A program made the position numbers and the translations under genes. From the IMG/VR virus record IMGVR_UViG_3300028048_000089, positions 51,329-115,328 of that record: a stretch of 64,000 nucleotides of DNA; one strand, written 5' to 3'. How positions within the stretch are numbered: the first letter of the stretch is position 1; each line of letters begins with the position of its first letter. This DNA is from a virus (taxonomy: Duplodnaviria; Caudoviricetes). The notes beneath the pieces were generated by a model. The model had not been told where the DNA came from and ran no database searches. It saw only the letters and a list, made by a program, of their open reading frames with translations. Positions 22,568 through 54,592 of this stretch are shown one piece after another.

Positions 22568-22577
22568 TTTAATCTCC

Positions 22578-23294: not shown

Positions 23295-23378
23295 TTATAT
23301 CATCTCCAAAAAGAATAGTATATCTATCATTAAATTTAGCAACTATATAAAATTGTATAATTTTAAGCACTATTTACA

Positions 23379-23410
23379 ATAAAAAGCAACCAAATAAATT
23401 TAGTTGCTTT
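23379..23410 (-). terminator. Intrinsic terminator after the tRNA
   Basis: Minus strand AAAGCAACTAAAT-TT-ATTTGGTTGCTTT followed by TTAT, immediately 3' of the tRNA CCA. Confidence 0.75.
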
Positions 23411-23414
23411 AAGT

Positions 23415-23490
23415 TGGTTACAGGGGGAGGACTTGAACCTCCGACCTCCAGGTTATGAGCCTGGTAAGCTACCTCTGCTATCACCCTGCG
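23415..23490 (-). tRNA. tRNA-Met(CAT), initiator type
   Basis: CGCAGGG...CCAGG-CTCATAA-CCTGG...GGAGG-TTCAAGT-CCTCC-CCCTGTA-A-CCA; 76 nt; C1xA72 mismatch; encoded CCA. Confidence 0.95.
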
Positions 23491-23672
23491 ATATCATCTT
23501 TAATAATTAGATTAGAATTGCCACTATCTAATCTCATTTGGGTTACATAAACACATAACGAATATAGTAGCAATTCTTTTTAATGCTCTTAATAACATAG
23601 TTTCTCCAATCTAGGTTTTAACGAGTTTTTTCTTCTCAATTAGAGCAAGATTGGCTATGACATTTGTATTTC

Positions 23673-23793
23673 GGCGGGGATGGAGAGGTATTGCACCTCA
23701 CAAACATTAAGATTCTTACACAGGACTTTTAATCATTTACCATGGACATGAAACCTTGTCGCTTAAATCATTTTCTACTTAAGTTACAACCCC
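23673..23793 (-). ncRNA. tRNA-like element (~120 nt, non-canonical)
   Basis: 5' GGGGTTG pairs with 3' CATCCCC-G-CC (one mismatch); T-arm-like GAGG-TGCAATA-CCTC; long D-like stem CTTAAGT/ATTTAAG; no clean anticodon arm. Confidence 0.45.
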
Positions 23794-23815
23794 AGAAAGA
23801 CTCCGAAGAGTCTTT
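23794..23815 (-). terminator. UUCG-capped hairpin, probable terminator or 3' boundary of the large RNA
   Basis: Minus strand AAAGACTC-TTCG-GAGTCTTT-CT. Confidence 0.65.
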
Positions 23816-24892
23816 ATTCATAGATGTTACTACTGTGTATCGTTCGTTTGCACAGGGTTAGATTTCTCTAACAAGGCAGGTAACTAGTCACGCTTTACAT
23901 AGGGTTTATGATTCTCACTACCTAATACGTTTGACATTCGCTCATTCTCATCAGTGACTCGTGCAGGATTTTATAACTATTGATAATAGTTCCCTGGACC
24001 CATGTCAGCTGGAACCTGCTTTTCTAAAAGTATTTTTCACCTAATTAGATGGTTTCTGTTTCTTATGTTTCTGTTGTTACCGTCTCCTACTGCTTTGGTA
24101 GATTGCTTCAGGTCAGTAGTCAACCTTTTGTTTAGAGGTCCGCTAACTCTAAACATAGAAAGGAGGTAAGGTTTATATTAACTCTATTGCTAGAGTAATA
24201 TACAAAGTTATTGACAATTTTTACTCTCCTCAGCAGTGTCTTAACAGTTATCTGGTAAGAGTAGGATTGCTCATGAGCCTCCGGCCTAATCGCGGTAGAT
24301 ATTTAATCATGAGTGTACTTGTTCCGATACATCATCACTGAATGTAGATTGTGAACCTCTCGGCAAACATTTTATTTATGTTTAATTTGAAGGCTCAACC
24401 CTTCTTGCAGGAGTAAATTCCTGGAGTTCCCTGGCTTTAATTTCTCTATACCATTCTACGCCATCTCTGGTAGGCACCAGCACATCTCCCTCATCTAAGG
24501 AAGATACAGGAAACGAACCCGTTATTTTTTCATAGATGGTTAATTACCTATTGCTAATGGTTATAAGCCAAACATTAGTGTAGTGACTGAAACTATACTA
24601 CTTTGTTCTAGATTTTACTCTAGTTACGGAGTTTAACCGCTTTTCTAATGCCAATAGGCTGAGGTAGTCCACTGACTTGCTTAATGCAAACAACATTCAG
24701 TACTGGGTGGTGGAACTATTTTTTTTAGTTAAGAATATTCACTTGTGTACTCTCCGCAACTTACGGGCTCTGTCTATTCTGCAGAAGACATTCCACGATT
24801 AGGAGTTTATGACGGTGTAGTAGATTGCGACTCTGTATCTTATATACCTCATATTTCAAAGGACTCAAAGACCCCGTCCATTCTTTCTTAAC
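23816..24892 (-). ncRNA. Large (~1.1 kb) structured non-coding RNA candidate (GOLLD-like or new class)
   Basis: No ORF in the track; visibly GC-richer than its flanks; own TATAAT promoter at 24899-24928; minus-strand GNRA hairpins (CTCTA-GCAA-TAGAG, GTTAGA-GAAA-TCTAAC); ends at a UUCG hairpin; next to a tRNA. Confidence 0.6.
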
Positions 24893-24898
24893 TATTAT

Positions 24899-24928
24899 AT
24901 TATACAAGATTTCTCTTGATAATACCAA
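24899..24928 (-). promoter_or_regulatory. Sigma70/SigA-type promoter for the ~1.1-kb RNA
   Basis: TTGGTA-N18-TATAAT on the minus strand. Confidence 0.55.
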
Positions 24929-24944
24929 CTTTTTTTATACATCT

Positions 24945-25510
24945 TATCATTCAATGAGTTCATGACTCTCACTGTTTTACTTACCATTTGATGTAAAGGA
25001 ATTTAACCTAAGCCTTAAAATAAGTTTGCTCATACTGATAGGATATCGGTGTCCTATTGTCATCAATTTTATAATCACACAAGTTTCCCACCATCTAAGA
25101 CAGTGACAAAGGATATTGTGTAATTAACATCATAAGGCACATCAATTAAGACATGCCCTTGAAAGTCCCAACATTAGTTGGCAATAGGTCCTTTATTATC
25201 CTATGTTTTAATCCATCGCATTAGTTTATCACTAGTCACAAGCAATAGATGAGGTATCCAAGATTTTTTCGTAATGTGCTTTACTTTCTCCACTTGGTTG
25301 GAAGATGTGAGAGACACCTTTTCAGTTCTTTGTCTTGAACAGATATTGCAGTAACATTATCTCACATTATGTAACCACTCAAGATTCCTATCCCTTTAAC
25401 GAATCTTCCTGGGGCATGTCTTCTCAATTAAGTTAGGTCTTCATGCTTGTCTAACAGCAGTTTTTTCTATAAACGAGATGTCGCCCGTTTTGCAAGAATG
25501 TTAACTTGCA
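24945..25510 (-). ncRNA. ROOL-like large structured RNA (~560 nt)
   Basis: ORF-free. Perfect 11-bp long-range helix between 25148-25158 and 25412-25422. Size and tRNA-adjacent phage context fit ROOL. The minus-strand TTAATTGAGAAGACATG...AAGATTCG...GGAATCTTGAGT...TGTGAGATAA resembles ROOL as I recall it (not verified by search). Confidence 0.6.
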
Positions 25511-25516
25511 CATATT

Positions 25517-25544
25517 ATTATACAATCTTTTTTCAAAATTGCAA
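25517..25544 (-). promoter_or_regulatory. Sigma70/SigA-type promoter for the ROOL-like RNA
   Basis: TTGCAA-N16-TATAAT on the minus strand. Confidence 0.55.
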
Positions 25545-25620
25545 TAATATTTTTAAAGAAAAGTATATAAAAACAATACCTCTCTTTTCATTTAATTTAG
25601 CACTTTGATTTTTAGGTATT

Positions 25621-25650
25621 AAAAAAGATGCATTATTTCAATGCATCTTT
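25621..25650 (-). terminator. Intrinsic terminator
   Basis: Minus strand AAAGATGCATT-GAAAT-AATGCATCTTT followed by TTT, just after the stop at 25664. Confidence 0.8.
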
Positions 25651-25663
25651 ATCTTCTTGTAAA

Positions 25664-26788
25664 CTACTTTTCAACTCTTGCTTTAAGTTCAATTGGTTTT
25701 CTTGCTTTAATATGACCTGTATTATGATTGTCTTCTTTCATATCTTTGACTGCACCAACAAGTTTTCTTTCTGGTGTATCTTTACCAAAATGTTTATCAA
25801 GAATGTCATCATCTGTATTCTTAATTACTTTTTTAAATAAAACATCCTCGTCATCATCTAGGTCATTCCAATCAACAGTGCCTAATTTAACATCATCTTC
25901 TGATTCATCTATAATATGATTGAAACCAAAGTCATCATCAAAATCAGTACTTTCAGAAATAGATTCACCAAAATCATCATCAATATCATCTAAAGCAATA
26001 TCATCAATGAATTCAGTATTTGAGACTTCAATCTTATCATCATCATTTTCTTTTGGTTCTTCTTTATCTTCATGCTTATAGATAGCATTTGGGTCTTTCT
26101 TAAGAACTTCTAAGAAATCTTTATGAGCAACTTCCTCTTCTTTAATATGATTTAATTGTTCAATAGCATTAGCATCTGCTTCTTTATCTAACATAGCAAT
26201 AATCTTGTCATAACCAGCAATTGCTTCATCTTCATCTTTAACTAAGAAATCAATTTTTTCTTCAAATGTTTCTAATTTTGGTTCTTTAGCATCTTCTTTA
26301 GGTTCTTCAACTTCTACTTCTGCTTCAACATCAATATCTTCAGCATCTTCTTTTAATGATTCATCAACAACTTCAAAATACTTATCAAAATCCTTTAGTA
26401 AGAAATCAGGGCCAATACTACCCCAAGTACCTAAATTTGTTTCAATCTTCCTATTGCCTCTAGTATCAACTTGTTTAGCATCATAGATACAACCTTTAGA
26501 CCATAATTCACCTTCTTCATCATCTTCCATGTAATCCTTAATGCATTTAACCTTGATTGTTGCTTTATCTTCTTTTAAAGATTCTTTAACTGCAACTAAA
26601 TCTTTGGTAGAGTCAATAATATCTTCTTTATTGAAAGAAATACCAGCATCACCTTTTAACCAAATAGCATCTTCATCATACTTTTTATTTAATTCTCTAA
26701 ATTGAGATAAAAGATGTTTATATTCATCATAATTGTCTTCTTCAATACCTAAGATATCAAAAATTTCCTTATCAGTTAAATTTTTCAT
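25664..26788 (-). CDS. Acidic multidomain putative internal head protein
   Basis: Two ESLKED linkers; DEDEAIAGY...HIKEEEVAH segment has a ferritin-like helix-pair pattern. Confidence 0.6.
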   Translation of the reverse strand: MKNLTDKEIFDILGIEEDNYDEYKHLLSQFRELNKKYDEDAIWLKGDAGISFNKEDIIDSTKDLVAVKESLKEDKATIKVKCIKDYMEDDEEGELWSKGCIYDAKQVDTRGNRKIETNLGTWGSIGPDFLLKDFDKYFEVVDESLKEDAEDIDVEAEVEVEEPKEDAKEPKLETFEEKIDFLVKDEDEAIAGYDKIIAMLDKEADANAIEQLNHIKEEEVAHKDFLEVLKKDPNAIYKHEDKEEPKENDDDKIEVSNTEFIDDIALDDIDDDFGESISESTDFDDDFGFNHIIDESEDDVKLGTVDWNDLDDDEDVLFKKVIKNTDDDILDKHFGKDTPERKLVGAVKDMKEDNHNTGHIKARKPIELKARVEK

Positions 26789-28308
26789 TAGTCTTCATCC
26801 TCCACATCATTGAGCATTTCATCATCTGCATCTTTATGAGCATCAGCTATACTAGCACAGATAGAGAAAATGTCATTACATAAACTTTCAAAAGCAACTT
26901 CCCAATTTGCATCTTGAGGAGTACAATATTCTTCTAAGACTTTCCATTGGTCATATGTATAAATTAATTCATCATCAATTGCTTGATAAATATCTTCATC
27001 ATCAGAGAAGTTATCAACTCTTCCAATAATAGAAGCAACAACATCTAAGAATTCAAAACTAGAACTATAATCAAAATATTCAGCAATAACATCTTTATAA
27101 GGAGATGTACTATATTCTTTATCTTCTTTAATCACTTCTTTTTCTTCTTTTAAAGATTCATCTGCTTCTTTTACTTTCTTTTTTCTTCCAACTTTTACAA
27201 TTAATTTATGATTATCATCTAATTCAAATTCATCAATAACTTCATCATCATTGAGAGGGTCTGTAAATCCTAGTTCATAACCTTTTTTATCATATAAGAC
27301 ATATTGACAATAACCACCATCATCTTCGTCAAATGCATCAAAATAAACATAACAACCATCTTCATAAGTTCCAATTTGTTCTGACATAGTTTCACCAGAT
27401 TCTGCATCATTTATTTCGTTGCATCTTTCAACAAAGTTAGAACCTACTTCATAAGTTAAAGTTAAAGAGGTTGATTCTTTCTTTTCTTCTTTTAATTTCT
27501 TTGGTAATTCAATATTAACTGATAAGAAAATAGGGAGTGATGAATCAACTAAGTCTTGTGCAGAATCAAAATGTTTAAATGCTTTTTTGAAATCATCCTT
27601 TTCTTCTTTTGTATCTTCTAAATAACCCCAAGAAATTTGATTATCAATTATATCATTAATATTTGTTAAATCAACACTACCATCTTTATTAAATTTAAAA
27701 TCATAGTCAACATCAAAAGTTCTAACTTTTAAATTATTTTTTGATGTTTCAACATTATAATCATCTTCAAGAGCATCTTTAATAGCATTGATAATTGCAC
27801 TCATAGAATCAGCATCTTCTTCAACTTCAATGTTATCAATTTCTTCTTGACTCATACCTTCATCAGGCAATTTTTCAGGGTCATAAGGATTACCTTTGTT
27901 TTCAGCATCACCAAAACCAATGACTTCACCATTAGGTTTAATTTCTAAATCTTTAACACTATTGAAATCATCTAATAACCAACCAGCAAGTTTTTCATAG
28001 TCTTCATTTGGAGTAATACCTGTAGTTTCACAAATGATGTCACCTGTTTTACTATCCCATGGCATAAACCAACCATCTGGTGTATCATCTTTATTAATTA
28101 ACATGATACCAGCACATAATGCCCAATCTGGATTATCAGTGGCTTGAATAGCATCATCTCTGATTTCATCTCCCCAACCTTCTTCCCAAAGAACTACGGC
28201 ACCAAGACCATTGCCTAAGTCATACCAACCACCAACATAGTCTTGATTATTTTTAAGGAATTCAACTTCCTCTTTTAACCATTTTGCAAGTTCTTTAATA
28301 TCATTCAT
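26788..28308 (-). CDS. Acidic multidomain putative internal head protein
   Basis: KLKEEKKES and KVKEADESLKEEKEVIKED linkers; late-promoter motif upstream. Confidence 0.6.
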   Translation of the reverse strand: MNDIKELAKWLKEEVEFLKNNQDYVGGWYDLGNGLGAVVLWEEGWGDEIRDDAIQATDNPDWALCAGIMLINKDDTPDGWFMPWDSKTGDIICETTGITPNEDYEKLAGWLLDDFNSVKDLEIKPNGEVIGFGDAENKGNPYDPEKLPDEGMSQEEIDNIEVEEDADSMSAIINAIKDALEDDYNVETSKNNLKVRTFDVDYDFKFNKDGSVDLTNINDIIDNQISWGYLEDTKEEKDDFKKAFKHFDSAQDLVDSSLPIFLSVNIELPKKLKEEKKESTSLTLTYEVGSNFVERCNEINDAESGETMSEQIGTYEDGCYVYFDAFDEDDGGYCQYVLYDKKGYELGFTDPLNDDEVIDEFELDDNHKLIVKVGRKKKVKEADESLKEEKEVIKEDKEYSTSPYKDVIAEYFDYSSSFEFLDVVASIIGRVDNFSDDEDIYQAIDDELIYTYDQWKVLEEYCTPQDANWEVAFESLCNDIFSICASIADAHKDADDEMLNDVEDED

Positions 28309-28366: not shown

Positions 28367-31300
28367 TTACTTCTTATTAATAATAAAATCTTTTTTATAA
28401 ATAGTTTCTTTATAGTTACCGTTATCATCAAAAGAACCAATGGCATCTTGGCCATGCTCTAAAGCAAACTTCTCTGCTTCTGGTCTATCTTTAAATAATT
28501 TATTTAATCCACAACTTGCTTGTGCATCTCCATCTGTACTACTCCAAGTACCTATTGAGTCAGCAATTGCTGATTCTTCACTACTTTGTAGTTCATTTAA
28601 TGCCTTTATAAATTCATCTTTATTTATTTCACTAATTCTTTTATTCCAATCTTTACTCTTAAATTCAACACTATAGGCGCTCTTTAATACATCTTTTCCA
28701 GATAAATCTTCACCTGTATTTTTATCAAAAGTTCCACCGTTGTTTGAAAGAGTTGCATTATAAATCTTTTCACACACTTCTTTACTAAAGTCTTCTTCTA
28801 AGTGTTCTAGAGAAAGTTCTTTACTAACACATTGTTTTCTTAAATCTTTTAAGTTATCTAAGTAACCTAAATTTCTAAATTCTTTAAAGACTAAATTACC
28901 AAGACCATATTCACCATCGCTTGCAATAGAGGATTTTCTTAAATCATAAATATCTTCAATAAAGTCTTCAATACTTTCAGCAGTTGGTTCACCATTAATT
29001 AAATTAAAGTATTTATCTTCCCATTCCATGAAGAGTTTATCAAATGCACTCTCATCTAAATCAGGAATATCTTTTTGTTCAGGTTTCTTTAACCAACCAT
29101 TATTTAAGGAATAAATGCCATTACTTTTTGCTTGTGGTTCATCCATTTCAACATAGATTTCACTTGGAATACCTTTGATTTTAATATCATAATTCTTATT
29201 AAACATACTTCTATAAGCACTATATAATAAAGGATATAAATCATCTGGGCATTCTAAACCACTTGAATCTGCAATTAAGTGAATATCTAAATCACTATCT
29301 TTTGTATAGTTATAAGAAACATTACTACCTAATAAAACAATATCTTTAAGAGTAAATCTAATACCATCTTCATTTAGTTCTCTAATAAATTGATAAGCAA
29401 TTTGTTCAATCTTATCTTTAATTTCAGGTTTTAATTCTTCACCATCAAAGAGTTTAGGATTTAATTCATCATGTTTTTCAATATCTTCATCAATAAGAGA
29501 TTTATCTAAATCAACAAAGAAATTATCGCCATCCCAACCATAATTAATTACTTCATAATCTTTGTCATTATAATTAATTATATATGTTAAAATTGGTTTA
29601 CTTTCATCTTTTCTAACATTATAGTTAGCATTTGTAAGGATTTCAAAGACATCTTTACCACTTGGTTTATCAATTAGAATATTGTGTTTTTCAATACCTT
29701 CTTTAATTTCATTTGTTTTAGTATATCTTTCTGGTGAACCAAATTTTTTAATTAAATACTCTTCGGGACATCCAAATATCGCTCTAAGTGGTCCAGTCCA
29801 TTGGGGTGCTAGAGGGTCAGACCTTGGGCACTCTCTACGATAAGGACAATCTTTACAACTAAATGCAACATGTTTTTCAATATCTTCTTCTATAGACTCT
29901 TGTTTTTTATTCTCACCCCAACCTAAAATAGTAATGTTTGTAGCAGGTTTGTTTGTCTTTCTATTAGATACTAAATCATCTTGACCAAGAACAATATCAA
30001 ACCAATATTGAGGTGCTTGAGATAAATCAGGTTCATATAGAGCATCAGTTGTACTATATGGGTCATTTGTATAAACACTATATCTATACTTGTCTCCTAA
30101 ATCATATTCTTGTTTTCTTAATGAAGAAACATCTCTAGGTTTTGCCCAGCCATTATTTTTAAGTATTTCAGTTGCTTGTTTAATTGATAATGGAGTAAAA
30201 ATACAATTTTGATTACCTAAGTCAAAATGTATTTCTTTTGCTCTTAAATCTGAAGGAAGAATCTTCAACAATTCTTTATTTGCAGTTGCATCATTAATAC
30301 CAGACACACCAATAATACCTTCTTCTAAGTCATCACCAGGATTAAAATCAATTTCAACTTTCTTTAATTGACCATCTTCTTGCTCATCCCATTTAACTTT
30401 TTCAACATTAGAAAGATTAATGCCCATTTCATTAGGAATAACATCTAAAGGTAAAGGACATTCTTCTGCATCTTTTTCAATATTCTCATTATCTCTAACT
30501 TGAATCTCTTTAACTTCTTCTTTTAATTCTTTGCCATATTTTTTAACATATGCTCTCGCATCTTCAATAGAATCAAAATCAGAAGTTGAATTAGCCCAAC
30601 CTCTATTCATCCATCTATTTGTTGCAGGATTAAAATCTTGGGTTCTAAAATAAACTTGATAAATAACTTTATCTTTACCTTTTCTAGCAACACCATTTAC
30701 TGTCTTGAAATTATGTTGAATTGTCTTAACAATTTTATATTCATTTGTTTCTTCAACAACTTCATCATTTGTATCTTCTTCTAAAGATTCATTTTTATTT
30801 TGTTTGCCTAATTTAAAATCATATTCAAATAATAAATCTAAAACAACAGGATTAGATGTTAATCTACTTTGTTTTTGATTAAATACTAAACCTTCACTAT
30901 AATCATCAATTGTTTGACCAGTATTCTTGTCATAAGACCACTCTAAGAATTCTTTTGGCATATCTTTAACAATATCTTCTTTTGTAGAAATATCTGCAAT
31001 CCAAGAACTCCAAGATTTATTTGCTTGATAATTAATTTCAACATCTGTACCATCTCTTTTATTTAAAGCATCAACTTTTTCTTGAGTTGACTTCATTAAA
31101 GAATCACCTGCAACAACAGTAATATTTGTAATTGCTCTTCTCAACCAAGCAAGTAATTCTTCAATATCACCTTTATAAGATTTCTCTATAACACCAGAAT
31201 ACTTTCTTAAAGTTTTCATACTTGCATCTTTTAACAATCTTTTGTATTCATCATAGTATGCAAGTTCAAATTCTGTTAAAGCAATACCTTCTTTTATTTG

Positions 31301-32434
31301 CTTCTCTAAATACTTAAAGTAAGTTTTATTCTTTGCAAGTATATCATTTCTTGCTTCTTGCTTTGCTCTATCAACATCACTCATTGATTGTGCTGGCTCA
31401 TCTTCAATTTCAAAAGTTGGTTCATCTTCAACTTTATATTTGTCTAATAAAGCATTAACATCTGCATCATCACTAGAGATAAGACCATTTTCAACACATG
31501 TTTTAACTGAAACACTTTTACCATTAGAAAGAGTTAATAATGTATCTTCATCATCTTCTTCAACTTCTTCAATTGTAACATCATCACCTTTATAAGTAAC
31601 TTTTTTACCAACTAATGAATCACCTGCAGACTCATAGATATCAGACTTATTAGCAATTCTCTTATCAACAAGCTCTTTAGCTGCATCAATATCTTTCATA
31701 CTACCAACTAAAGTACCTTTTGGGTCATAAACTTTCCAGTAGTTTTTCATATTTGTAAAAAGATTATAACCAGGATGATATACAAGTTTATAGTCTTTGT
31801 ACATTTGAACTTCTTTATCTTCTTCTAAAGAACAGTCTTCTTCTTTAACAACTTTCTTTTTGCCTTTTTTAGGACCTTTGAATTGAACAAAGTAAGCAGT
31901 ATGGTCAATTGCAAATCTATCATCATCTGACCAATAATCAACATCATCATAATGTTTACTTAGAATTTCCCAAGCTGCTCTTGCTTCAGATTCAAAAGAA
32001 TATCTAAATATATCTTCCTTTGTGAAATTATTAGTTTCTCTCTTTAATTCATCATATACTTGTTTCTTATTGAAAGGTTTAGCATCATCCATGTAGTCTT
32101 CCTCCATATTAAATGAATCATTAGTTTCTTTACCAAGTTTATTAATATCAACTTTAGTTGTGTCTTCTTTAACAATATCTCCATAAGATAAACTCTCATG
32201 AGCGATAACAACTTTATCAACTAAGTTTTCACCACCTGGTATTCTATATACATTATAACCATTATTTTCTGCTATGTCAATTACTTCTGAAGAGGATAAA
32301 CCATAATTATTAGTAATCTCCTCAATATCAAAATAAGATGGTACTTCTCTTCCATCAGCATAAGTATGTGTTAATTCATCCATAACACTTAATATGACAT
32401 CATATTCTGTTGCTTCTTGTAATCTTTTTCTCAT
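28367..32434 (-). CDS. 1355-aa polyvalent protein containing a Pol-beta-superfamily nucleotidyltransferase domain
   Basis: DIVLLGSNVSYNYTKDSDLDIHLI (GS...DxD) near 29270-29345; about a dozen [LIV]xE[ED] linkers between unrelated segments. Confidence 0.75.
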   Translation of the reverse strand: MRKRLQEATEYDVILSVMDELTHTYADGREVPSYFDIEEITNNYGLSSSEVIDIAENNGYNVYRIPGGENLVDKVVIAHESLSYGDIVKEDTTKVDINKLGKETNDSFNMEEDYMDDAKPFNKKQVYDELKRETNNFTKEDIFRYSFESEARAAWEILSKHYDDVDYWSDDDRFAIDHTAYFVQFKGPKKGKKKVVKEEDCSLEEDKEVQMYKDYKLVYHPGYNLFTNMKNYWKVYDPKGTLVGSMKDIDAAKELVDKRIANKSDIYESAGDSLVGKKVTYKGDDVTIEEVEEDDEDTLLTLSNGKSVSVKTCVENGLISSDDADVNALLDKYKVEDEPTFEIEDEPAQSMSDVDRAKQEARNDILAKNKTYFKYLEKQIKEGIALTEFELAYYDEYKRLLKDASMKTLRKYSGVIEKSYKGDIEELLAWLRRAITNITVVAGDSLMKSTQEKVDALNKRDGTDVEINYQANKSWSSWIADISTKEDIVKDMPKEFLEWSYDKNTGQTIDDYSEGLVFNQKQSRLTSNPVVLDLLFEYDFKLGKQNKNESLEEDTNDEVVEETNEYKIVKTIQHNFKTVNGVARKGKDKVIYQVYFRTQDFNPATNRWMNRGWANSTSDFDSIEDARAYVKKYGKELKEEVKEIQVRDNENIEKDAEECPLPLDVIPNEMGINLSNVEKVKWDEQEDGQLKKVEIDFNPGDDLEEGIIGVSGINDATANKELLKILPSDLRAKEIHFDLGNQNCIFTPLSIKQATEILKNNGWAKPRDVSSLRKQEYDLGDKYRYSVYTNDPYSTTDALYEPDLSQAPQYWFDIVLGQDDLVSNRKTNKPATNITILGWGENKKQESIEEDIEKHVAFSCKDCPYRRECPRSDPLAPQWTGPLRAIFGCPEEYLIKKFGSPERYTKTNEIKEGIEKHNILIDKPSGKDVFEILTNANYNVRKDESKPILTYIINYNDKDYEVINYGWDGDNFFVDLDKSLIDEDIEKHDELNPKLFDGEELKPEIKDKIEQIAYQFIRELNEDGIRFTLKDIVLLGSNVSYNYTKDSDLDIHLIADSSGLECPDDLYPLLYSAYRSMFNKNYDIKIKGIPSEIYVEMDEPQAKSNGIYSLNNGWLKKPEQKDIPDLDESAFDKLFMEWEDKYFNLINGEPTAESIEDFIEDIYDLRKSSIASDGEYGLGNLVFKEFRNLGYLDNLKDLRKQCVSKELSLEHLEEDFSKEVCEKIYNATLSNNGGTFDKNTGEDLSGKDVLKSAYSVEFKSKDWNKRISEINKDEFIKALNELQSSEESAIADSIGTWSSTDGDAQASCGLNKLFKDRPEAEKFALEHGQDAIGSFDDNGNYKETIYKKDFIINKK

Positions 32435-32467: not shown

Positions 32468-35400
32468 CTATTCTTCATCATACTTTTCAAAATCATCATA
32501 TGCTTTATTTATATCAGGTAACCCTTTAATTGTAGGGAAAGTATCTCTCAAATCACCTTTATGCCAACATTCACCACCCATGGCATCCATACCATTATTA
32601 AATGGTGTACCATAGCCAACATGTGGGAAATCAGTCTCATCAAATAAACACCAATTTTCATCATCTACATATTCTAAAGCATATTTAGAATTCTTATTTT
32701 TCTTATTTAAGAAGAAATATATTGTTGCATCAAAGTCTTTTGTATGATGATTAAAATCAACTCTACCTTGGTCTGAATTGTTTCCAGTTATGCACCATTC
32801 AGTGCCTTTACCGTATTTAACAGATGCTTCATAGGTATTAATTTTTAAAACTAACCAATTATCATCTTCATATATTTTTTCAGAACCTGCTTTGCCTAAT
32901 TTATTTATCTCTCTTCTTGTTGGAGTTTGTTCAACATCATCTAATGCAGTTTTCAAACTATTAATTGCACTATCATGTGCCCATTCTTCATAGTTTGAAA
33001 TATCAGAGTATTCTTGAGCCCTTTTATACCTATCTTTAAGATTTAAAAGTTGCTTCTCATTTCCCATCCAATAATAAATATCTTTTGCTCTATCTGGTAA
33101 TCTATCTTTCAATTTAAAAAATCTATTAGCAAGTTCATCTCCTGCCCATTGTCTAAACTTTTCTATATCTTGCTTAGATTCATTTAGAGATTCACTAAAG
33201 AAACCACCTCTAATATATGCTTGATTAATTGCTCTAATAATATCATCAGCATCACTTACATCTAAATCAAATAACTCATCACCTACAGACGTATAGACTG
33301 CTAAAAGATTTTCTCCTTTACTATCTACTTTCTCTTCTGGGAATATATCATACCAATAAAATTTTCCTTCTGGTTCAAATAAGTCTTTTCTATCTAATAT
33401 CTTTCTAATTGCATTAAGTTGTTCTGGTGTAGGTCTTGCTTTATCTGGCATACTTAAATATGGGTAAGTAACATTCATTTTTATACAATTATCATAAATA
33501 GCATTTAGATTGTACCCTTTTTGATATGCCCAATCTTCAAAATCACTATGTTCATATATTGGGTCTTCTCCTACTTCATCCCAATATTCTTGAGCATTAT
33601 CTGGATTTAAGAAATGACCATTAGGAAGAATATAAGTTGACCACATATAAAGTTCTTCTTGTCCAAATTCTTTATCTAAAGCATCTAGAACATTATCTTT
33701 AACATCTTCATGTAAAGATTCTTTAATATTGTCATATTTGATGTTATATTTATCAGCATTCTGTTTTAATTCAGCATTAATGTTACTGTTAAAAATGTTA
33801 GGGAACTCATTTGTAGAATGAGCACCTTTAATGCTCACTATTTCTAAGACATTACTTAAGTCATATGATGACACACCAATTTCATCTAAGAAAACTATGT
33901 CATCATCATAATGATAATATGCTTTGCTTATTGTTTTAGTTTTATTAAAATTTTTAGCAACTGCATATCTACCCTTTGCAACTGCTACAATATCTTCCTT
34001 ATTAAATTTACATTTCAATGTTATTCTGTTTTTGTATATTCTGAATCTATAATAATCAGTATAGAACAGTATTATTTTTGTATTTCTATCAGTAACATTA
34101 TCAAAATGCACCCAATCATTATCATCAGGAATCCACTGACCCTCAATAACATCACCACTAAATAGTCTATAGAACTCATCATTTGTTATAGTTCTATAGC
34201 AAATAACCTCATCAGATAAATCATCTCTACTTATTGGTGTTGAAATTTCTATATCTTTGTTAAAAGTTTCTTCCTCTAATGATTCACCAAAGAAACCTCT
34301 AGACATAGCAAATTTAACATCACTTATAATCTCATCACTTGTAGGGTTATTAAATTGTAAGTCCCATTTTTGATGAGCATAATTTGTACCTACAAATGCT
34401 TGAATATCATAAATCTTCTTTGAGTATTTATTCTTAAGAATGTAATCAACAAAATCTTGTAATGAGTTTAGTTGACTTGAAGTTATTGAACTATAAGGAA
34501 TAACAAAGTACGCTCTATCTTCAATATCAGCTTTTGAGCCATCGTTAACTCTTATCAATTTAAAGAATCTAGTAAAGAAGTTTGTTAAGTTAGAAGTATC
34601 AAACTCATTTTCTATTTCTTGCTCATTAAGACCTTCAATATCCATTAAACATTGAAAAGCTAAATCACCATGCATTTCAAATCTTTTACCAGATAATAAA
34701 TACTTACCATCTGGCATAATAAATGCAGGACCACAAGATTGATATGTATTACTTACTAAATCAGGATATTTTTTACATATATCTTCCAAAGTAAATGAAA
34801 ACTCATCGCCCTTAATTTCTACTTCTTCATTCATATGTTTAAAATAATGAACTTGTTGAAGTCTCTTTTCAGCTTCTTTCTTAGTATCATAAGTTCCTAA
34901 GTTCTTAGTTCCATCTTCACTTTGAACTTGATATTTACCATTATTTAATTTAACTATTTTTTCATTTAGTTGTTTAAATTCATCTAAACTATATATTTCT
35001 AAATTGTGAGGTTTAGCATTCTTCTTTAACCAAATTTCATTTTCTGGGTACTGTTTATTTGCACTATAATAAACATAAGTATGCTGAGTTAATTTCCAAT
35101 CAACATCTTCTTCATTAATTTCTCCTACTAGAATAGTCTTAAAATTATTTCTATTAATGAAATTCTTATCTATTGTCCAATGTACACCTAAGTTATTTAA
35201 ATCAATTTGGTTTTTATCCTTCCAAAGTAACCCTCTATAAACTTTTAAAGGAAACTTTAGATTATTGCAAAAATCAACAACACTATCAAAATCATCCTCA
35301 TGGTCTTGAGTTGTCTTAGTGGCTAAATCTTTTTGAGAGTCTCCCATATTTTTAAAGTATCTCATTTGCTGATTGAAAAAATTCTTTTTAACTTCCTTTT

Positions 35401-38400
35401 TATTGGTGTTATATTCTTTTAAAGGCTCACTAAAGAACCCACCTCTAATATAGGCTCTATTAATTGCTTTAATAATATCATTTGCATCACTTACATTTTC
35501 TTTACTCATTAGAGAATAGCCAGCATATAATTCATTAAATTTATCTTCATCATGATGTGGATATTCTTTGTTTATCTTCTTAGCATATTTATTTACTCTA
35601 TCTATATGAGCATGAGTTCTTTCATCAAACTTCTTTTGATAATCTTCTTTGTCTATCTTCTCAGTTAAATAGCCTCTACCATATGCTTCTTTACACTTCT
35701 TAAGAATCTCATCTGTTGTATAATCACTATCATAATATGTCTTAGGTGCATAACTTTTAAAACCAACAGTTAATTTATGATGAAATCTAAAATACCAATC
35801 TAACCACATTAAAAGTGAATTCCATTGAGTTTCATTAGGCCTATCATCTGGTAACCAAATATATTCTTCAAAACCACCATTGACTCTAATACAACCTAAT
35901 CTTTCTAATTCTGGTGTTTCAACTTGCCAAAAATCTTCTTTTGCATAACCTTTATCATATAAGAATTGTTGAACATCTCTATGAGTAGCACTACCTGAAG
36001 CACTATATTTACTTACTGGTATCTTACTTCTCCAAATAGTTAGAAATTTTCCATCTGGCATAATATAACTTGGACCATCAATTGGTCTATCACTTGTACC
36101 TATTTCTTTTTCTGCAAATTCAATAGTACTCATATCAGCATCTTCATTCATATGCTTAAACATCTCAACATCTTTAAGTCTCTCCTCTGCTTCTTTCTTA
36201 GTATCATAAGTACCTAAGTTCTTTCCTTTTTCACTTTGAACTTGCCACTTACTTCCCTTTTTAACTATTTTTTCATCTAACTTTTTAGTTTCAATAATAG
36301 GTTTGGTATTGAACACTACAAAGGTAGTTTCTCCACTATGTTCCCAACACATACCATCAAAACCTAATTCAACTAAATGTTCTTTGAAATCTTTACTTAA
36401 AATATCTTTTTCAGTTATTTCTCTATTAAAGAACTTTTTGGCTTCTTCAAATACATCATTTGTTTCCAAATCATATATTTTAGAAGTATCTAAAATGCAA
36501 GTAAAGATGTTTTTACCATGTTCTTTCGCATACTTTTTATCAGTAGTGAACCAAACACCAGGTTCAGTTTTAATATGAGTTAAATCAAACTTGTCTATAT
36601 CACTATTAGTTCCGTGATAAACCATTATCACCTTATTATCTTTATTTTCGTTAGCAACTTTTTTAACTATTTTTTCTTTAAGAGATTCTCCTGCTTTAGC
36701 ATGTATATTACCACCTTTTCTAGGTTCCATAATTTTCTTAAATGTACCAGGTTTTAAATCATAAACAACTGTACCATAACCAAAATTATCAAGACCACTA
36801 AGTCCTTGAGCATCTTTATTAAGATGTGTAACATCAACACCTTCATAACCAAGGCCTTTCATAAGCATTGTAGATATAGAATCTTCACTATTACTTTCAT
36901 ATGCTTTATGAATAATATCTAAAAGAGTTTTTTCATTAACATTAAACATCTTACTTAATGTTTTCAATGCATACTTTAAACCTGAAATATTTCTTGCTTT
37001 ATAATGTATAGCATCTTCAACATGCTTTTCAATTTCACCTGATTTCATTGTGTCAATGTCTTTCCAAACATATTCTTCAAGGCCATATTTAGCAATAAAC
37101 TCTTTAACAAGTTTTCTATAATTATCTAATGACTTGTCTTGTTCTTTTACAGCATCTTCATAATCTTCACTATCATCGGATAAATCATCTAAATCATCAA
37201 AATCTAAATCAATGTCATCATCGTCTAAATCTTCATCAACAAGAGTCCAACCAATATTAAATAATTCATCATCTAATGCTTCTTCATCAAAATTAGAATT
37301 TAACCAAGTATCTAAACTTGGTTCATAACCATCATTAATTTCTTTTAATGTATCATGTAATCTATAAGCACTATCATTATCTTTTGGTTTATAGAGATTA
37401 TAATTATCTAATTCAATTTCATATATTGGTCTACTTGGTTCATAATCATACTTCTTTATCTTGTTATCTTTATCTAAACCATAAGGCCCTTCTTTACCAA
37501 CAAAATAGAAACCAGTACCAAAATGACCAGTACCTCTACCACCCATCATCTTTCTAGTATCTGTTTTCTTGGCATAATCTAAGTCACCCCAAGTGATTGC
37601 TTTCTCTTCATTTAAATCTTCATTTATGTGGTCTGCATATTTATAGTCTTTTATTTCTTTAGGCTCACCTAATGCTTTATAAAGTTGTGTATTTTCTAAA
37701 GAATTTTTATTTACTTGTGACCATTCTTTAGTTACATCTACAATTCTAGTATTTTCATAATCATACTCTCTTCCTGTAGAATAGTCAACAAAAATATTTA
37801 TCTTTTTATCATAAGGAACGACATTTAAGTAAACATTATTGGCTTTATTATAATCTCCACTAATATATCCATATTGTTTAGCATACGCAATCATATCTGC
37901 ATGTGTATTTCCATATGGGCTTCCTATTAACCACAATTCTTCTCCATTTACATGAACACCAACTAATTTAAGTGCTCTCTTACTGTTTAAGATTTTATTC
38001 TTAATTTCATAAGGAGAAGAGGAAATTAAAATTCCTGTTTGCTCTATTTCTTTTAAACTTTCATCTAGAGATTCTTCAATAACTTTAACAACTGAAGTAA
38101 AAGGAATAATGCCATGATATTCTACTGTTGAATCATTATCCAAAACATTCTCATCTATAAACAACTTTTCTTTATCTAATTTATTGGTATCTATTTTCAA
38201 TACAATAATATTGTCTGCATATTTATCATAATCTTCAACGTCATCTAACCATTCTGCAGTTTCAGCATAAGAATAAGCAACATCTTTATCTAAAGCAAGA
38301 TAAACAACACCTCTACCTTTACTATCAGACCACATTTTTCTTCCTGTATTTCCAAGACCTTTCTCTTTAATTGATTTTAAGAATGGCTTATATGTCGCAT

Positions 38401-40255
38401 GATATAGATATTGTGGTAATTCAAAATCCACTTCTTCATCTAATGATTCATTTACTTTACCTAAAACTTTAACTTGGTCAAATAAACCAAATGTTTCAAC
38501 ATTCTTGTCATTTATACTATCATATTCAATTGCTTTAATTCCATTGTAACCTAAACCTTCTAAGATTCTCTTGAAAGCCATTGACCTTACAACTGGTCTT
38601 ATAGCAAGTCTATATGGATTAACACTATACTCATCAGCAACATTGTCAATTACTTTTCTAATTGCATCTTCACTAATGTTTAATCTTCTAATAATTGCAG
38701 TAAATTCTCTAGAGAACTTTAAAGGAGTTGAAGGAATCATATCAAACACTCTAGCATCAGTTTTACCTACATCTAAAAGATTTCCTAGAGTTGCACTACA
38801 TTTATAAACATAACCATTACCTAAGGCAAATGTTTTAGCATAATCATAATCTTTTGTAATCCAATTTATAGGTCTATTTAGATAACCTTCAATATCTTCA
38901 ACAGAACCGTGAAAATAGACATCCTCAGACACTTTTTCGCTTTCATTGAGATTTTCATCATAATTTTTATTAAACCTGCTTAAATAGTCTTTTGAGAGAC
39001 CTAAACCATTTAATACACTACTTGAGATATCTCCACTCTTAATATCAAAAATTAATCTATTTGCTAACATAATAGGAAATACATACAATCTTCCAGGATG
39101 TACATGTTCTAATTCATCTGCATCAAAACTATTGATAAAGAAGTCATCAAGTTCACCATCTGACCAATCACTAATGCCACATCTATTGTTTGCCCACATG
39201 AATAATTCAGTATAGTCTTTTATAGGTGAGATTAACCAACCATCATAATCTTCTTCTAGAACTATATATTCTGCTTCATTTTCTAAAGTATATTTAAGTG
39301 AATTTAATTTTTCTTCTTTTGTATTACCGCTAAGAGAGGCTAATTCATAACCAGCAAGTGCAGGTAAGTCACCATCCCACATAGAATCTTCATCAAATTC
39401 TTCACCTGTTATTCTTTTATACTCTTCTGGTGTTATATCTCCATTAGCACATGCTTCAAATTCAAGATAACCATCTGGAATCATATCATCAACCGCAGTT
39501 AAAAGGTCATTAAGTTCATCTCTACTATAAATTTCACATTCATTGCCTGTATTATCTGTAAAAGTTTCTTGAATAATTTGCTTTAAAACATTACTATCAA
39601 TTCTTTTATTCATAATAGCATTAACTAAAATGTTGCTATTACTTTCATTTTTATAATCTGCTTTAATTTCATCAATAACAGGAGCATTAGGAATATATGG
39701 AATACCTACATCTTCAGCATTAAAAATTTCACAACTATTATCTGGATATACTGCTAATGCATATTTAGTATCTTTGTTAATAAAGAAATAGAATCTTACG
39801 CCATTTTGTGAATAATATTGGTCAAAGTAACCTGCGCCTTCTTCTCCATTAGCCCATCTCTTTGAACCACTAATACACCACTTAGTACCTTTACCATACT
39901 TAGCACTTGCTTCATAGTTTGTAATCTCATATACTTTCCAGTCATTATCAGAATACACTAATCTAGCACCATCTTTTTCTTTATCTTTAAGTGCAGTCTT
40001 TTCTCTATGCTGTTTTAAAAGTTCATCCACATATTTCTTCAAATCATCTGGAGTACTATTTTTCATCCAGTAATAGAAGTCATTGTATGGTGATTTAATT
40101 CTTGGTTTTAAGAAAATAAAGTTCTTAACTAGACTATTAGCAAACATCTCTTTATCATCATCTAGGATAAATTTTTGAGTTGTATTATTAAGAATCCAGT
40201 TTTTAAACTTCTCTTGGTCTTCTTTTGCTTCTATGATAATTTTCTCTTTTGGCAT
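32468..40255 (-). CDS. ~2600-aa polyvalent protein with multiple ADP-ribosyltransferase-like and repeated domains
   Basis: YFHGS, YLYHAT, VYHGT, GTGFYF, VYRGL and CYRTI ART-like starts; three [ML]PDG-type repeats; two KYGKGTxWCI domains. Start moved to ATG 40255 (AAGGA RBS) because the longer start overlaps the late promoter. Confidence 0.75.
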   Translation of the reverse strand: MPKEKIIIEAKEDQEKFKNWILNNTTQKFILDDDKEMFANSLVKNFIFLKPRIKSPYNDFYYWMKNSTPDDLKKYVDELLKQHREKTALKDKEKDGARLVYSDNDWKVYEITNYEASAKYGKGTKWCISGSKRWANGEEGAGYFDQYYSQNGVRFYFFINKDTKYALAVYPDNSCEIFNAEDVGIPYIPNAPVIDEIKADYKNESNSNILVNAIMNKRIDSNVLKQIIQETFTDNTGNECEIYSRDELNDLLTAVDDMIPDGYLEFEACANGDITPEEYKRITGEEFDEDSMWDGDLPALAGYELASLSGNTKEEKLNSLKYTLENEAEYIVLEEDYDGWLISPIKDYTELFMWANNRCGISDWSDGELDDFFINSFDADELEHVHPGRLYVFPIMLANRLIFDIKSGDISSSVLNGLGLSKDYLSRFNKNYDENLNESEKVSEDVYFHGSVEDIEGYLNRPINWITKDYDYAKTFALGNGYVYKCSATLGNLLDVGKTDARVFDMIPSTPLKFSREFTAIIRRLNISEDAIRKVIDNVADEYSVNPYRLAIRPVVRSMAFKRILEGLGYNGIKAIEYDSINDKNVETFGLFDQVKVLGKVNESLDEEVDFELPQYLYHATYKPFLKSIKEKGLGNTGRKMWSDSKGRGVVYLALDKDVAYSYAETAEWLDDVEDYDKYADNIIVLKIDTNKLDKEKLFIDENVLDNDSTVEYHGIIPFTSVVKVIEESLDESLKEIEQTGILISSSPYEIKNKILNSKRALKLVGVHVNGEELWLIGSPYGNTHADMIAYAKQYGYISGDYNKANNVYLNVVPYDKKINIFVDYSTGREYDYENTRIVDVTKEWSQVNKNSLENTQLYKALGEPKEIKDYKYADHINEDLNEEKAITWGDLDYAKKTDTRKMMGGRGTGHFGTGFYFVGKEGPYGLDKDNKIKKYDYEPSRPIYEIELDNYNLYKPKDNDSAYRLHDTLKEINDGYEPSLDTWLNSNFDEEALDDELFNIGWTLVDEDLDDDDIDLDFDDLDDLSDDSEDYEDAVKEQDKSLDNYRKLVKEFIAKYGLEEYVWKDIDTMKSGEIEKHVEDAIHYKARNISGLKYALKTLSKMFNVNEKTLLDIIHKAYESNSEDSISTMLMKGLGYEGVDVTHLNKDAQGLSGLDNFGYGTVVYDLKPGTFKKIMEPRKGGNIHAKAGESLKEKIVKKVANENKDNKVIMVYHGTNSDIDKFDLTHIKTEPGVWFTTDKKYAKEHGKNIFTCILDTSKIYDLETNDVFEEAKKFFNREITEKDILSKDFKEHLVELGFDGMCWEHSGETTFVVFNTKPIIETKKLDEKIVKKGSKWQVQSEKGKNLGTYDTKKEAEERLKDVEMFKHMNEDADMSTIEFAEKEIGTSDRPIDGPSYIMPDGKFLTIWRSKIPVSKYSASGSATHRDVQQFLYDKGYAKEDFWQVETPELERLGCIRVNGGFEEYIWLPDDRPNETQWNSLLMWLDWYFRFHHKLTVGFKSYAPKTYYDSDYTTDEILKKCKEAYGRGYLTEKIDKEDYQKKFDERTHAHIDRVNKYAKKINKEYPHHDEDKFNELYAGYSLMSKENVSDANDIIKAINRAYIRGGFFSEPLKEYNTNKKEVKKNFFNQQMRYFKNMGDSQKDLATKTTQDHEDDFDSVVDFCNNLKFPLKVYRGLLWKDKNQIDLNNLGVHWTIDKNFINRNNFKTILVGEINEEDVDWKLTQHTYVYYSANKQYPENEIWLKKNAKPHNLEIYSLDEFKQLNEKIVKLNNGKYQVQSEDGTKNLGTYDTKKEAEKRLQQVHYFKHMNEEVEIKGDEFSFTLEDICKKYPDLVSNTYQSCGPAFIMPDGKYLLSGKRFEMHGDLAFQCLMDIEGLNEQEIENEFDTSNLTNFFTRFFKLIRVNDGSKADIEDRAYFVIPYSSITSSQLNSLQDFVDYILKNKYSKKIYDIQAFVGTNYAHQKWDLQFNNPTSDEIISDVKFAMSRGFFGESLEEETFNKDIEISTPISRDDLSDEVICYRTITNDEFYRLFSGDVIEGQWIPDDNDWVHFDNVTDRNTKIILFYTDYYRFRIYKNRITLKCKFNKEDIVAVAKGRYAVAKNFNKTKTISKAYYHYDDDIVFLDEIGVSSYDLSNVLEIVSIKGAHSTNEFPNIFNSNINAELKQNADKYNIKYDNIKESLHEDVKDNVLDALDKEFGQEELYMWSTYILPNGHFLNPDNAQEYWDEVGEDPIYEHSDFEDWAYQKGYNLNAIYDNCIKMNVTYPYLSMPDKARPTPEQLNAIRKILDRKDLFEPEGKFYWYDIFPEEKVDSKGENLLAVYTSVGDELFDLDVSDADDIIRAINQAYIRGGFFSESLNESKQDIEKFRQWAGDELANRFFKLKDRLPDRAKDIYYWMGNEKQLLNLKDRYKRAQEYSDISNYEEWAHDSAINSLKTALDDVEQTPTRREINKLGKAGSEKIYEDDNWLVLKINTYEASVKYGKGTEWCITGNNSDQGRVDFNHHTKDFDATIYFFLNKKNKNSKYALEYVDDENWCLFDETDFPHVGYGTPFNNGMDAMGGECWHKGDLRDTFPTIKGLPDINKAYDDFEKYDEE
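33192..35496. repeat. 70-bp near-identical direct repeat (33192-33261 and 35427-35496)
   Basis: Encodes VSDADDIIRAINQAYIRGGFFSE and VSDANDIIKAINRAYIRGGFFSE. Confidence 0.9.
34824..36276. repeat. ~140-bp diverged direct repeat (34824-34965 and 36141-36276)
   Basis: Both copies encode EKIVK...QVQSE...KNLGTYDTKKEAExRL...FKHMNE. Confidence 0.9.
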
Positions 40256-41419: not shown

Positions 41420-41773
41420 TTAATCAATGTCATCATATTCAGCATTTTTTCTTGCTTGATATTCTGCTTCTTCTCTATCTAGTTCAATGTCTTCTTCAAC
41501 TTTTTCTTTGAATTCTTCAAATGCATCTTCTTTACATTTATCTTTAAACCATTCTTCCATATCAGATTCAACAGCATCAAAAACACCAAATTCAACAAGA
41601 GTATTCCAGATGTCATTGTCTTTGCCATCAATGTTAATCATTTGTCTATCAAACCATTCTCTAACACCTTCAATGAATGTATCAAATGGAATTTCATAGA
41701 AGTAACTATCTTTATGGCCTTTGTATTCAAATTCTGGATAGTAAACTTCGTATCTTGTTTTGTCATCTTTCAT
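41420..41773 (-). CDS. Acidic hypothetical protein
   Basis: 117-aa ORF coupled to both neighbours. Confidence 0.55.
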   Translation of the reverse strand: MKDDKTRYEVYYPEFEYKGHKDSYFYEIPFDTFIEGVREWFDRQMINIDGKDNDIWNTLVEFGVFDAVESDMEEWFKDKCKEDAFEEFKEKVEEDIELDREEAEYQARKNAEYDDID

Positions 41774-54546: not shown

Positions 54547-54592
54547 TATTTTCTCCTTAATTAAATTATTGTAATATGATTTTATTTTATTA

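Follow-up and report, generated by a model that had tools for sequence, protein, structure and literature searches.

A giant modular gene

The stretch of DNA described here ('the window') is 64,000 nucleotides long and forms the right 64 kb of an IMG/VR virus record of 115,328 bp (IMGVR_UViG_3300028048_000089), with a GC content of ~29% and nearly all genes on the minus strand. It carries a giant gene (32468..40255, minus strand) that encodes 2595 amino acids (aa) from an ATG backed by a ribosome-binding site, arranged as about 15 modules (labelled M1 to M15). Four of these modules are assigned, from sequence profiles and structural modelling, to three clades of the ADP-ribosyltransferase (ART) superfamily (two ART-PolyVal domains, one lobe resembling that of KptA and one domain of an R-[S/T]-ExE type), and a fifth, M5, appears to be ART/RES-like. 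The gene probably encodes phage cargo of the 'polyvalent' class, in a phage of myovirus type whose head resembles that of T4.

The reading frame is open on the minus strand from 40294 to 32468 (2608 aa) and offers two ATG codons near its beginning. The one at 40255 has a ribosome-binding site (AAAGGA) 8 nucleotides upstream, while the other, at 40294, lies within a late-promoter-like motif ahead of the gene, TGCTAAATT, which itself follows a terminator-like hairpin. The database gene call is likewise 2595 aa, and 40255 is, judging from these signals, likely to be the better start. An original prediction, made from the letters of the window, had described a single giant open reading frame (ORF) ending at these points; the gene proved to be intact, with 40255 as its preferred start, and every motif quoted in that prediction was found where it had been placed. 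Residue numbers given below count from 40294 (protein P0001), and subtraction of 13 gives the count from the likely start.

When the protein is compared by BLAST with 57 homologues (1,448-4,007 aa), the alignments break at recurring points, and the same modules are found among those homologues in other orders and copy numbers; such rearranged copies were recorded in at least 33 related giant proteins. The list of about 15 modules drawn up at the outset was reproduced by these break points, by iterated profiles and hhalign comparisons, and by the positions of short linkers between the modules.

ADP-ribosyltransferase-like modules

As many as six ART modules had been proposed for this chain; M2, M6, M3 and M10 hold up, M5 is a probable addition to them, and M13 drew no ART match of usable strength. 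Module M6 (36284..36667, minus strand; motifs VYHGT, GVWFT, KYAK and GFDGMCWE) matches the Pfam ART-PolyVal family PF18760 with an E value of 1.2e-12 and 49.2 bits, against a cut-off of 31.2, and the match was confirmed on the genome. Module M2 (38441..38941, minus strand; YFHGS, INWIT, DYAK and GYNGIKAIE) goes unreported for PF18760 in a direct Pfam scan. It is nevertheless placed in the same family because profiles built from M2 and M6 find one another (1e-14 and 1e-27), because hhalign pairs the two at 99.7% (E 1e-25), and because the M2-homologous stretch of protein P0018 matches PF18760 at 8e-15 with 56 bits. Both of the ART calls originally based on the VYHGT and YFHGS motifs are therefore ART-PolyVal assignments, the former through Pfam and the latter through hhalign.

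The ART-PolyVal family has been described as an H-Y-D type of ART, of which a single polyvalent protein carries between one and twelve (PMC5512222). In the family alignments the invariant or nearly invariant positions are the His of YHG[ST], a Trp, a Tyr-Ala pair and a downstream Glu, all of which are kept in M2 and M6; the placement of the His, the Tyr and the acidic residue on particular strands is by analogy, rather than from a model of either module. The Asp of the GYDG motif is not invariant (17 of 28 sequences), and M2 has Asn at this position, where most relatives have Asp. On the pattern of conserved residues, M2 and M6 read as H-Y-E ART-PolyVal domains.

Module M10 (34970..35413, minus strand; VYRGL, GVHWT and ENEI) belongs to a family that was delineated by an exhaustive HMMER search, which yielded 80 relatives; in many of these the domain stands alone, as a protein of 130-200 aa. 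An alignment of 40 sequences shows no variation at Arg60 and Trp79 and hardly any at Tyr59, Gly76, Glu124 and Glu126, giving a signature of YR, then G-x-x-W-[T/S], then E-x-E. An AlphaFold2 (AF2) model with a pLDDT of 97 consists of a three-helix N-terminal bundle followed by an ART core of ~95 aa, with Arg60 on strand 1, the W-T pair on strand 2 and the ExE motif leading into a late strand; the conserved positions fit the modelled strands 56-62, 78-80 and 126-129. A second look at this module bore out the ART fold, all 50 of the 50 matches listed being ARTs, and a language-model search pointed independently to DRAT (0.93).

Other searches with M10 returned little. Its profile finds no match among PDB sequences, Foldseek against the PDB gives nothing at an E value of 1e-3 or better, and no relatives were returned by a word-index search, by tblastn against GenBank phages or by a single-protein IMG/VR scan. 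The viral structures that it does match are uncharacterised phage proteins, and neither Alt nor Mod appears among the 50 best of them. The earlier reading of VYRGL as the opening of an ART is thus sustained by the modelled fold and by the conserved R, W-[T/S] and ExE, while the 'Alt/Mod-like' label once attached to it finds no support in these matches beyond the general R-S-E class. Taken together, the alignments and the model identify M10 as a minimal R-[S/T]-ExE ART of an undescribed family. The small R-S-E toxin ARTs, namely the Rhs toxins TreX (8s2m/9gco) and TreTu (7zhl) and also Scabin (5ewk), show no detectable sequence kinship with it. M10 differs from them in its N-terminal bundle of three helices, in the W-[T/S] pair that replaces the classical S-T-S, and in belonging to a phage protein family that lacks a Pfam model.

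Module M3 (38069..38431, minus strand; YLYHAT, SIKEKGL, VYLA and EYHG) resembles the NAD+ lobe of the KptA/Tpt1 enzymes. It matches the PTS_2-RNA family (PF01885) with an E value of 1.5e-3 and 19 bits (17.7 bits in another scan) over profile positions 97-127 of 177, and two related giant proteins reach 29-31 bits, above the 26-bit cut-off of that family. The PF01885 match in P0023 abuts and overlaps that protein's own copy of M3, and the one in P0017 falls where the M3 profile detects no copy. When a profile of six M3 sequences was run against the PDB, all seven matches were Tpt1/KptA chains (best E 5.7e-3), with the alignment to 6e3a covering residues 95-128 and beginning where the NAD+ lobe opens.

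The opening strand and helix of that lobe, recognizable in KptA/Tpt1 (PF01885; PDB 6e3a, 8tfi and 9ld4) by the motifs LYH[GA]T, SIK and GL, is present in M3 as the corresponding LYHGT-SI-GL pattern. KptA and Tpt1, however, have two lobes, and the N-terminal RNA-binding lobe, which carries the catalytic Arg and His, is missing from M3; the module is a single lobe of 120 aa between two linkers, and so cannot hold it. From its sequence M3 is not a KptA but an ART domain akin to the NAD+ lobe of that enzyme, and the KptA-like call made for the YLYHAT motif stands in this sense, the module matching KptA/Tpt1 NAD+ lobes only.

The fifth candidate, M5 (36686..37618, minus strand), is termed here the 'GHFGTG' domain and was defined by profiles and an AF2 model (pLDDT 85), in which a core of ~170 aa with alpha/beta structure is split by a helical, acidic insert. 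It is the most widespread of the modules, occurring also in distant polyvalent proteins; an alignment search found it in at least 103 IMG/VR loci, many of which carry a version of ~170 aa that lacks the central insert. In 52 aligned sequences the invariant positions are R28, T30, G31, H32, G34, G36, Y38, T250, G260, D277 and G282, those from R28 to Y38 forming an R-x-T-G-H-F-G-T-G-x-Y-F loop. The pattern seen in loci L006-L085 and in the window is this loop, followed by S-T, LGYEG[VI]D and YG[ST]V[IV]YD.

Upstream of the glycine loop, strand 1 carries a family motif, [YF]-[HR]-x-G-D-L, whose second residue is His in 49 and Arg in nine of 69 distinct relatives scanned; strand 1 of ARTs typically shows such an alternation of His and Arg. 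Towards the C-terminus, LGYEG[VI]D has its parallel in the LG[YF]DG[IM] of ART-PolyVal domains. Moreover, hhalign pairs the M5 core with M2 at 51% (and with the other modules compared at 3.4% or less), and 21 of the 38 copies of M5 surveyed adjoin an ART-PolyVal domain.

No Pfam family covers the window copy of M5 or the copy in P0036, and no PDB sequence matches. Neither tblastn of M5 and M6 together against GenBank phages nor a single-protein IMG/VR scan with M5 gave any match. Modelling, as proposed at the outset, gave an ART fold for M10 and a folded M5, and Foldseek of M5 against the PDB returned nothing at an E value of 1e-3 or better, its list being filled by the helical insert. On its motifs and modelled core, M5 is probably an ART/RES-like NAD+-utilising domain, and the RES-domain NAD+-degrading toxins (MbcT, 6fkg; NatT, 8qnl; Xre-RES, 9r35; VPA0770, 8gug) would be among the known systems closest to it. 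Thus the ART call for GTGHFGTGFYF survives, weakly, as an ART/RES-like core, while the window copy lacks the His or Arg that its family has on strand 1.

A likeness of the M5 sequence LGYEGVDV to the 'DGIDI' of GH18 chitinases was dismissed as chance. The same pairing of a GHFGTG domain with an ART-PolyVal domain was also observed in a distant protein, P0042 (locus L004, 3474 aa), which ends in a Peptidase_M23 domain and is encoded directly ahead of holin and endolysin genes in a different type of phage; the linkers described below are absent from it.

The module that opens with CYRTI (M13; 33719..34273, minus strand), the sixth candidate and the one that the original prediction itself had called weakest, gains no sequence or profile support as an ART. 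Its only copies found by BLAST and protein searches are near-identical ones, in P0017 and P0026 (87-88%) and in two fragments of ~90% identity. Pfam, PHROG and NCBIfam give no match to it, tblastn against GenBank phages and a single-protein IMG/VR scan were empty, and hhalign relates it to M2, M3, M6 and M10 at 0.4% or less. The single lead, in which ESM paired the module with the rifampin ART Arr (Arr-ms; 0.87, 100 shared features), fell below the reliability line of the tool and was set aside. Comparisons by hhalign of M10, M13 and M3 with each other and with ART-PolyVal likewise detected no relation (0.1-13%), a result that says little, because the ART clades are very divergent.

It is improbable that most of these ART-like modules are catalytically dead and act, not as enzymes, but as decoys that bind NAD+ or ADP-ribose or as structural material that fills the core of the head. 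Such a role would accommodate the Thr of M5, at a position where His or Arg was seen in 58 of 69 distinct relatives scanned, the Asn in the GYNG of M2, and the absence of the KptA RNA lobe from M3. However, M2 and M6 (His, Tyr-Ala and Glu) and M10 (Arg, W-T and ExE) keep every residue that is invariant in their families, and the residue replaced in M2 belongs to a position that varies, whereas the downstream Glu does not.

Linkers and the N-terminus

Several of the modules are parted by a short motif, ES[LI]xE, which a motif scan places on the minus strand between M2 and M3 (ESLDE, 38435..38449), between M3 and M4 (as a double linker, ESLDESLKE, 38048..38074), between M5 and M6 (ESLKE, 36674..36688), between M12 and M13 (ESLEE, 34271..34285), between M13 and M14 (ESLHE, 33707..33721) and between M14 and M15 (ESLNE, 33179..33193). 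These six non-overlapping occurrences, or seven when the double site is counted as two, compare with 0.15 expected from shuffles of the protein. The broader consensus is [D/N/E]-E-S-L-x-E-[S/D]. Among the 162 xS[LI]xE sites counted across 33 related giant proteins, 124 fall outside domain interiors, which make up only 39% of the residues. Distant polyvalent proteins that carry M5 in other phage types lack the linker motif.

The 115-kb record contains 18 ES[LI]xE sites, and all except two of them lie in six genes between 20384 and 43347 of the window (minus strand), with products of 733, 374, 506, 1355, 2608 and 524 aa (~6,100 residues in total). The capsid, portal, protease and terminase genes contain none; one site falls in an ORF of 1,200 aa at the left edge of the window. 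From the distribution of the motif, the six genes look like an array of modular cargo genes, rather than a lone oddity.

The first residues of the giant protein, MPKEKIIIE (40229..40255, minus strand), end in I-I-E and are, by analogy with T4 (PMC9026906), a candidate N-terminal propeptide or capsid-targeting peptide. In at least 15 close homologues the first 6-24 residues similarly end in [ILV]-x-E (for example MKDVFIVE, MNNFILE and MKYIILE). The (L/I)-x-E pattern expected of a propeptide is thus present at the start backed by a ribosome-binding site, as a pattern in sequence.

The head-gene setting

The giant gene lies among genes for a T4-type head. Upstream of it are genes for a T4 gp20-type portal protein (Portal_T4, above the Pfam cut-off; 58513..60387), for a prohead core serine protease of the T4 gp21 family (Peptidase_S77) fused to a scaffold-like tail (54593..56083) and for a Gp23-family major capsid protein (above the Pfam cut-off; 53188..54627), and downstream of it is one for a gp13-type neck protein (22578..23294), recognized by 56% identity to a PF26809-annotated gene of the relative L087; all four are on the minus strand, and a terminase is also among the flanking head genes. 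The protease matches PF03420 with 33.5 bits (cut-off 27) and phrog_207 at 1e-34, and its gene is 14 kb upstream of the giant gene. The same order (capsid, giant gene, more large genes, gp13) is found in five relatives. The nearest cultured capsids, at 27-31% identity, are those of Bacillus, Listeria and Streptococcus myoviruses, among them Bacillus phage vB_BceM-HSE3, Listeria phage LIS04 and Bacillus phage SP-15 (each ~30%), which makes a low-GC Gram-positive bacterium no more than a reasonable guess for the host. Close to the N-terminus of the capsid ORF stands S-L-T-E-A (MNTSLTEAYK), and the maturation site of T4 gp23 likewise reads L-T-E-A.

A proposed route from one gene to several effectors

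Polyvalent proteins are predicted cargo of the virion and often contain one to many ARTs (PMC5512222, PMC9503650). The features that mark such proteins are found here: multiple unrelated domains (the ~15 modules) with mosaic relatives, a portal-terminase phage in which the gene has a late, structural setting, and the hallmark ART-PolyVal domain (PF18760 in M6). A role within the infected cell late in infection (anti-defence, superinfection exclusion or host shut-off), with the location among head genes incidental, is very unlikely. The scans of the giant protein with Pfam and PHROG, in which no MuF fusion, portal fusion or known head-decoration domain appeared, would sit comfortably with such a role; against it are the conservation of synteny from capsid to neck in the five relatives, the late-promoter-like motif before the gene, the resemblance of the N-terminus to a T4 propeptide, and the finding that packaging contexts account for ~44% of phage ARTs (PMC9503650).

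A model for how such cargo might be handled is provided by T4, in which gp21 cuts after a Glu that follows a short motif and removes propeptides of 7-65 residues, including that of the packaged ART Alt, and in which a peptide of 10 residues at the N-terminus is enough to direct a protein to the head interior (PMC9026906). By extension, the giant protein, made late, would be drawn into the prohead core by its short N-terminal propeptide, MPKEKIIIE; the gp21-family prohead protease would then cut after the Glu of the L-x-E linkers, giving ~10 pieces; the pieces would be ejected along with the DNA; and the ART pieces, drawing on the NAD+ of the host, would modify its proteins or nucleic acids at the start of infection, as T4 Alt does. 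We infer such a head-targeted polyprotein, cut at its linkers, from the enrichment and positions of the linkers, their restriction to one lineage, the N-termini and the T4 precedent. What the sequence itself shows is the ORF, its mosaic of modules, their assignment to families or folds, the setting among head genes, and the frequency and placing of the linkers; packaging, cleavage, ejection, catalytic activity and targets are proposed. By analogy with T4, packaging in the head is likely, while for cleavage at the linkers the case is evenly balanced. The suggestion made at the outset, that a single precursor supplies several modifiers, fits with the head-gene module, the gp21-type protease and the Glu-ending linkers.

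The same multi-ART polyvalent protein might instead be left in one piece, with the ES[LI]xE motifs acting as flexible spacers or in-frame recombination joints and not as protease sites, although this seems rather unlikely. There is precedent for it, since the virion RNA polymerase of phage N4 is packaged unprocessed and polyvalent proteins have been treated as single polypeptides (Iyer 2017, PMC5512222). Moreover, the module order is heavily reshuffled exactly at the linker joints, and the linker codons are biased (GAA TCT TTA predominating). However, the peptide motif is kept in spite of synonymous variation (TCT, TCA or AGT; TTA, CTA, CTT, ATT or ATA) and of variation at the x position, and its terminal Glu, preceded by Leu or Ile at P3, agrees with the preference of T4 gp21, whose motif is (L/I)-x-E. 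In addition, the linker is limited to phages of this head type, being absent from distant polyvalent proteins that share modules with them, and a gp21-family protease is encoded nearby.

Several observations weigh against a packaged and processed multi-ART protein. The record is only ~70% complete (CheckV). The tripeptide L-x-E occurs too often to be diagnostic alone, and the propeptide pattern is followed only loosely at the N-termini encoded by the neighbouring putative cargo genes. The Ser of the linker is encoded by TCT or TCA at 16 of 17 sites, and at only one by AGT, otherwise the commonest Ser codon there (~40% of the background); because of this bias the linkers appear to share ancestry at the level of DNA and could persist as recombination joints, an idea that is compatible with cleavage. 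Among the ART modules, the M10 family has no match in Pfam at E values up to 0.1, and hence no Pfam ART model; M3 itself falls below the PF01885 cut-off; and the strand-1 residue of the window copy of M5 is a Thr that recurs only in the close relative L001, so this copy may be altered or inactive.

The packaged and processed polyprotein can be carried a step further. More tentatively than any single part of it, we suggest that the gp21-type protease would turn six linker-sharing polyproteins into more than 20 separate ejected effectors, NAD+-using enzymes of at least three ART clades among them, with the linker acting both as a cleavage site and as an in-frame recombination joint for the acquisition of new cargo cassettes.

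Relation to known systems

Multi-ART polyvalent proteins, predicted to be packaged and injected, have already been described (PMC5512222, PMC9503650), so that the general kind of protein encoded here is known. The polyvalent proteins of Iyer, Burroughs, Anand, de Souza and Aravind (2017, PMC5512222) share with it a giant chain of up to ~15 effector domains, a late structural gene setting in a portal-terminase phage, and extreme mosaicism; ART-PolyVal is their commonest enzymatic domain (up to 12 copies), and packaging and injection were predicted for them. In contrast to those proteins, the one described here mixes three ART clades, including an R-S-E type and a KptA-like lobe, lacks MuF, SNF2 helicase, methylase, metallopeptidase and named LPD domains, and has modules parted by a conserved Glu-ending linker in a phage that encodes a gp21-type protease, a combination that suggests a polyprotein that gets cut up. 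The available text of the two accounts (PMC5512222 and PMC9503650) makes no mention of three ART clades, with an R-S-E type among them, in one chain; of a lone KptA-like lobe as a cargo module; of the ART-like families of M10 and M5, for which no Pfam model was detected; or of a conserved Glu-ending linker in a lineage with a T4-type head.

In the case of T4 Alt and the internal proteins IPI-III, an ART and small effectors enter a prohead core of the gp23/gp21/gp20 type by means of a short N-terminal peptide, gp21 trims them behind a Glu, and they leave the head together with the DNA (PMC9026906), a pathway that the present phage is proposed to share. The T4 system differs in having one gene per cargo protein, trimmed only at its ends, whereas here ~15 modules occupy one gene, and no module of the giant protein is detectably a member of the Alt/VIP2 family in Pfam or in the viral structure matches.

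To our knowledge almost none of the multi-ART polyvalent proteins has been studied at the bench, and the clean boundaries between modules in this one mean that single enzymes can be excised for testing. Two ART-like families without a Pfam or PDB entry emerge from it, that of M10 (80 members) and the GHFGTG domain (at least 103 IMG/VR loci, usually beside ART-PolyVal), the latter of which merits a family description of its own, and a KptA-like NAD+ lobe appears in a role outside RNA repair. The T4-type prohead protease and the conserved Glu-ending linker together offer a testable route from one gene to many injected effectors. If processing does occur, phage cargo genes could be picked out of metagenomes simply by their linker sequence, and the linker could offer a design, taken from nature, for packing several proteins into phage heads.

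Remaining modules and neighbouring genes

Among the modules outside the ART question, several are repeated within the chain (all coordinates are on the minus strand). M1 (39665..40228) and M15 (32471..33181) are two copies of one domain, KYGKGTxWCI (KYGKGTKWCI and KYGKGTEWCI, respectively), related by iterated profiles and by hhalign at 100%. M8, M12 (34280..34813) and M14 (33188..33709) are three copies of another, Y[IL][ML]P[DN]G (YIMPDG, FIMPDG and YILPNG; profiles, and hhalign at 99.8-100%), and M9 is a C-terminal piece of the same type of domain, M8 and M9 together occupying 35414..36124 and ending in AINRAYIRGGFF. M7 (36125..36283; Pfam and profiles) and M11 (34814..34969; profiles) are two copies of a DUF2188 unit, which had earlier been noted as a KIVK repeat. 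An extension after M1 (M1b, 38945..39664) was defined by BLAST and profiles and is present in 19 homologues, and profiles defined M4 (37619..38053), of which the homologues contain 40 copies.

Profiles of M1, M4 and M8 found no match among PDB sequences, and the whole protein gave no significant match there; NCBIfam gave none, and PADLOC matched the DUF2188 unit alone. No Macro domain was found in the 115-kb record, and megablast of the region against GenBank phages was without a match.

The gene next to the giant gene (28367..32434, minus strand) encodes the modular protein of 1355 aa that has two ES[LI]xE linkers, a weak match to LPD5 (E 0.003) and, over residues 984-1209, a strong match to phrog_36119; it is probably a second polyvalent protein and likely further cargo. 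The ES[LI]xE scan identified three more linker genes at 20384..28308 (minus strand), with products of 733 aa (three sites), 374 aa (three sites) and 506 aa (one site), and on the other side of the giant gene the gene for the 524-aa protein (41773-43347; one site).

Between these cargo genes and the neck gene, 23381-25602 is the sole long stretch free of ORFs. An Rfam search of it (E <= 0.01) found a tRNA at 23422-23487 (minus strand) alone, with ROOL and other large RNA families unmatched. Farther upstream, the large terminase seems to be split into two ORFs on the minus strand (60435-61739 and 62223-63911), the upstream one of which runs on beyond its ATPase part with an intein-like start (CLDGETMIKT) and a homing-endonuclease-like tail that bears NUMOD-type repeats. 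A further ORF, of 379 aa and HNH/NUMOD-like, lies between the portal and protease genes (57321-58460).

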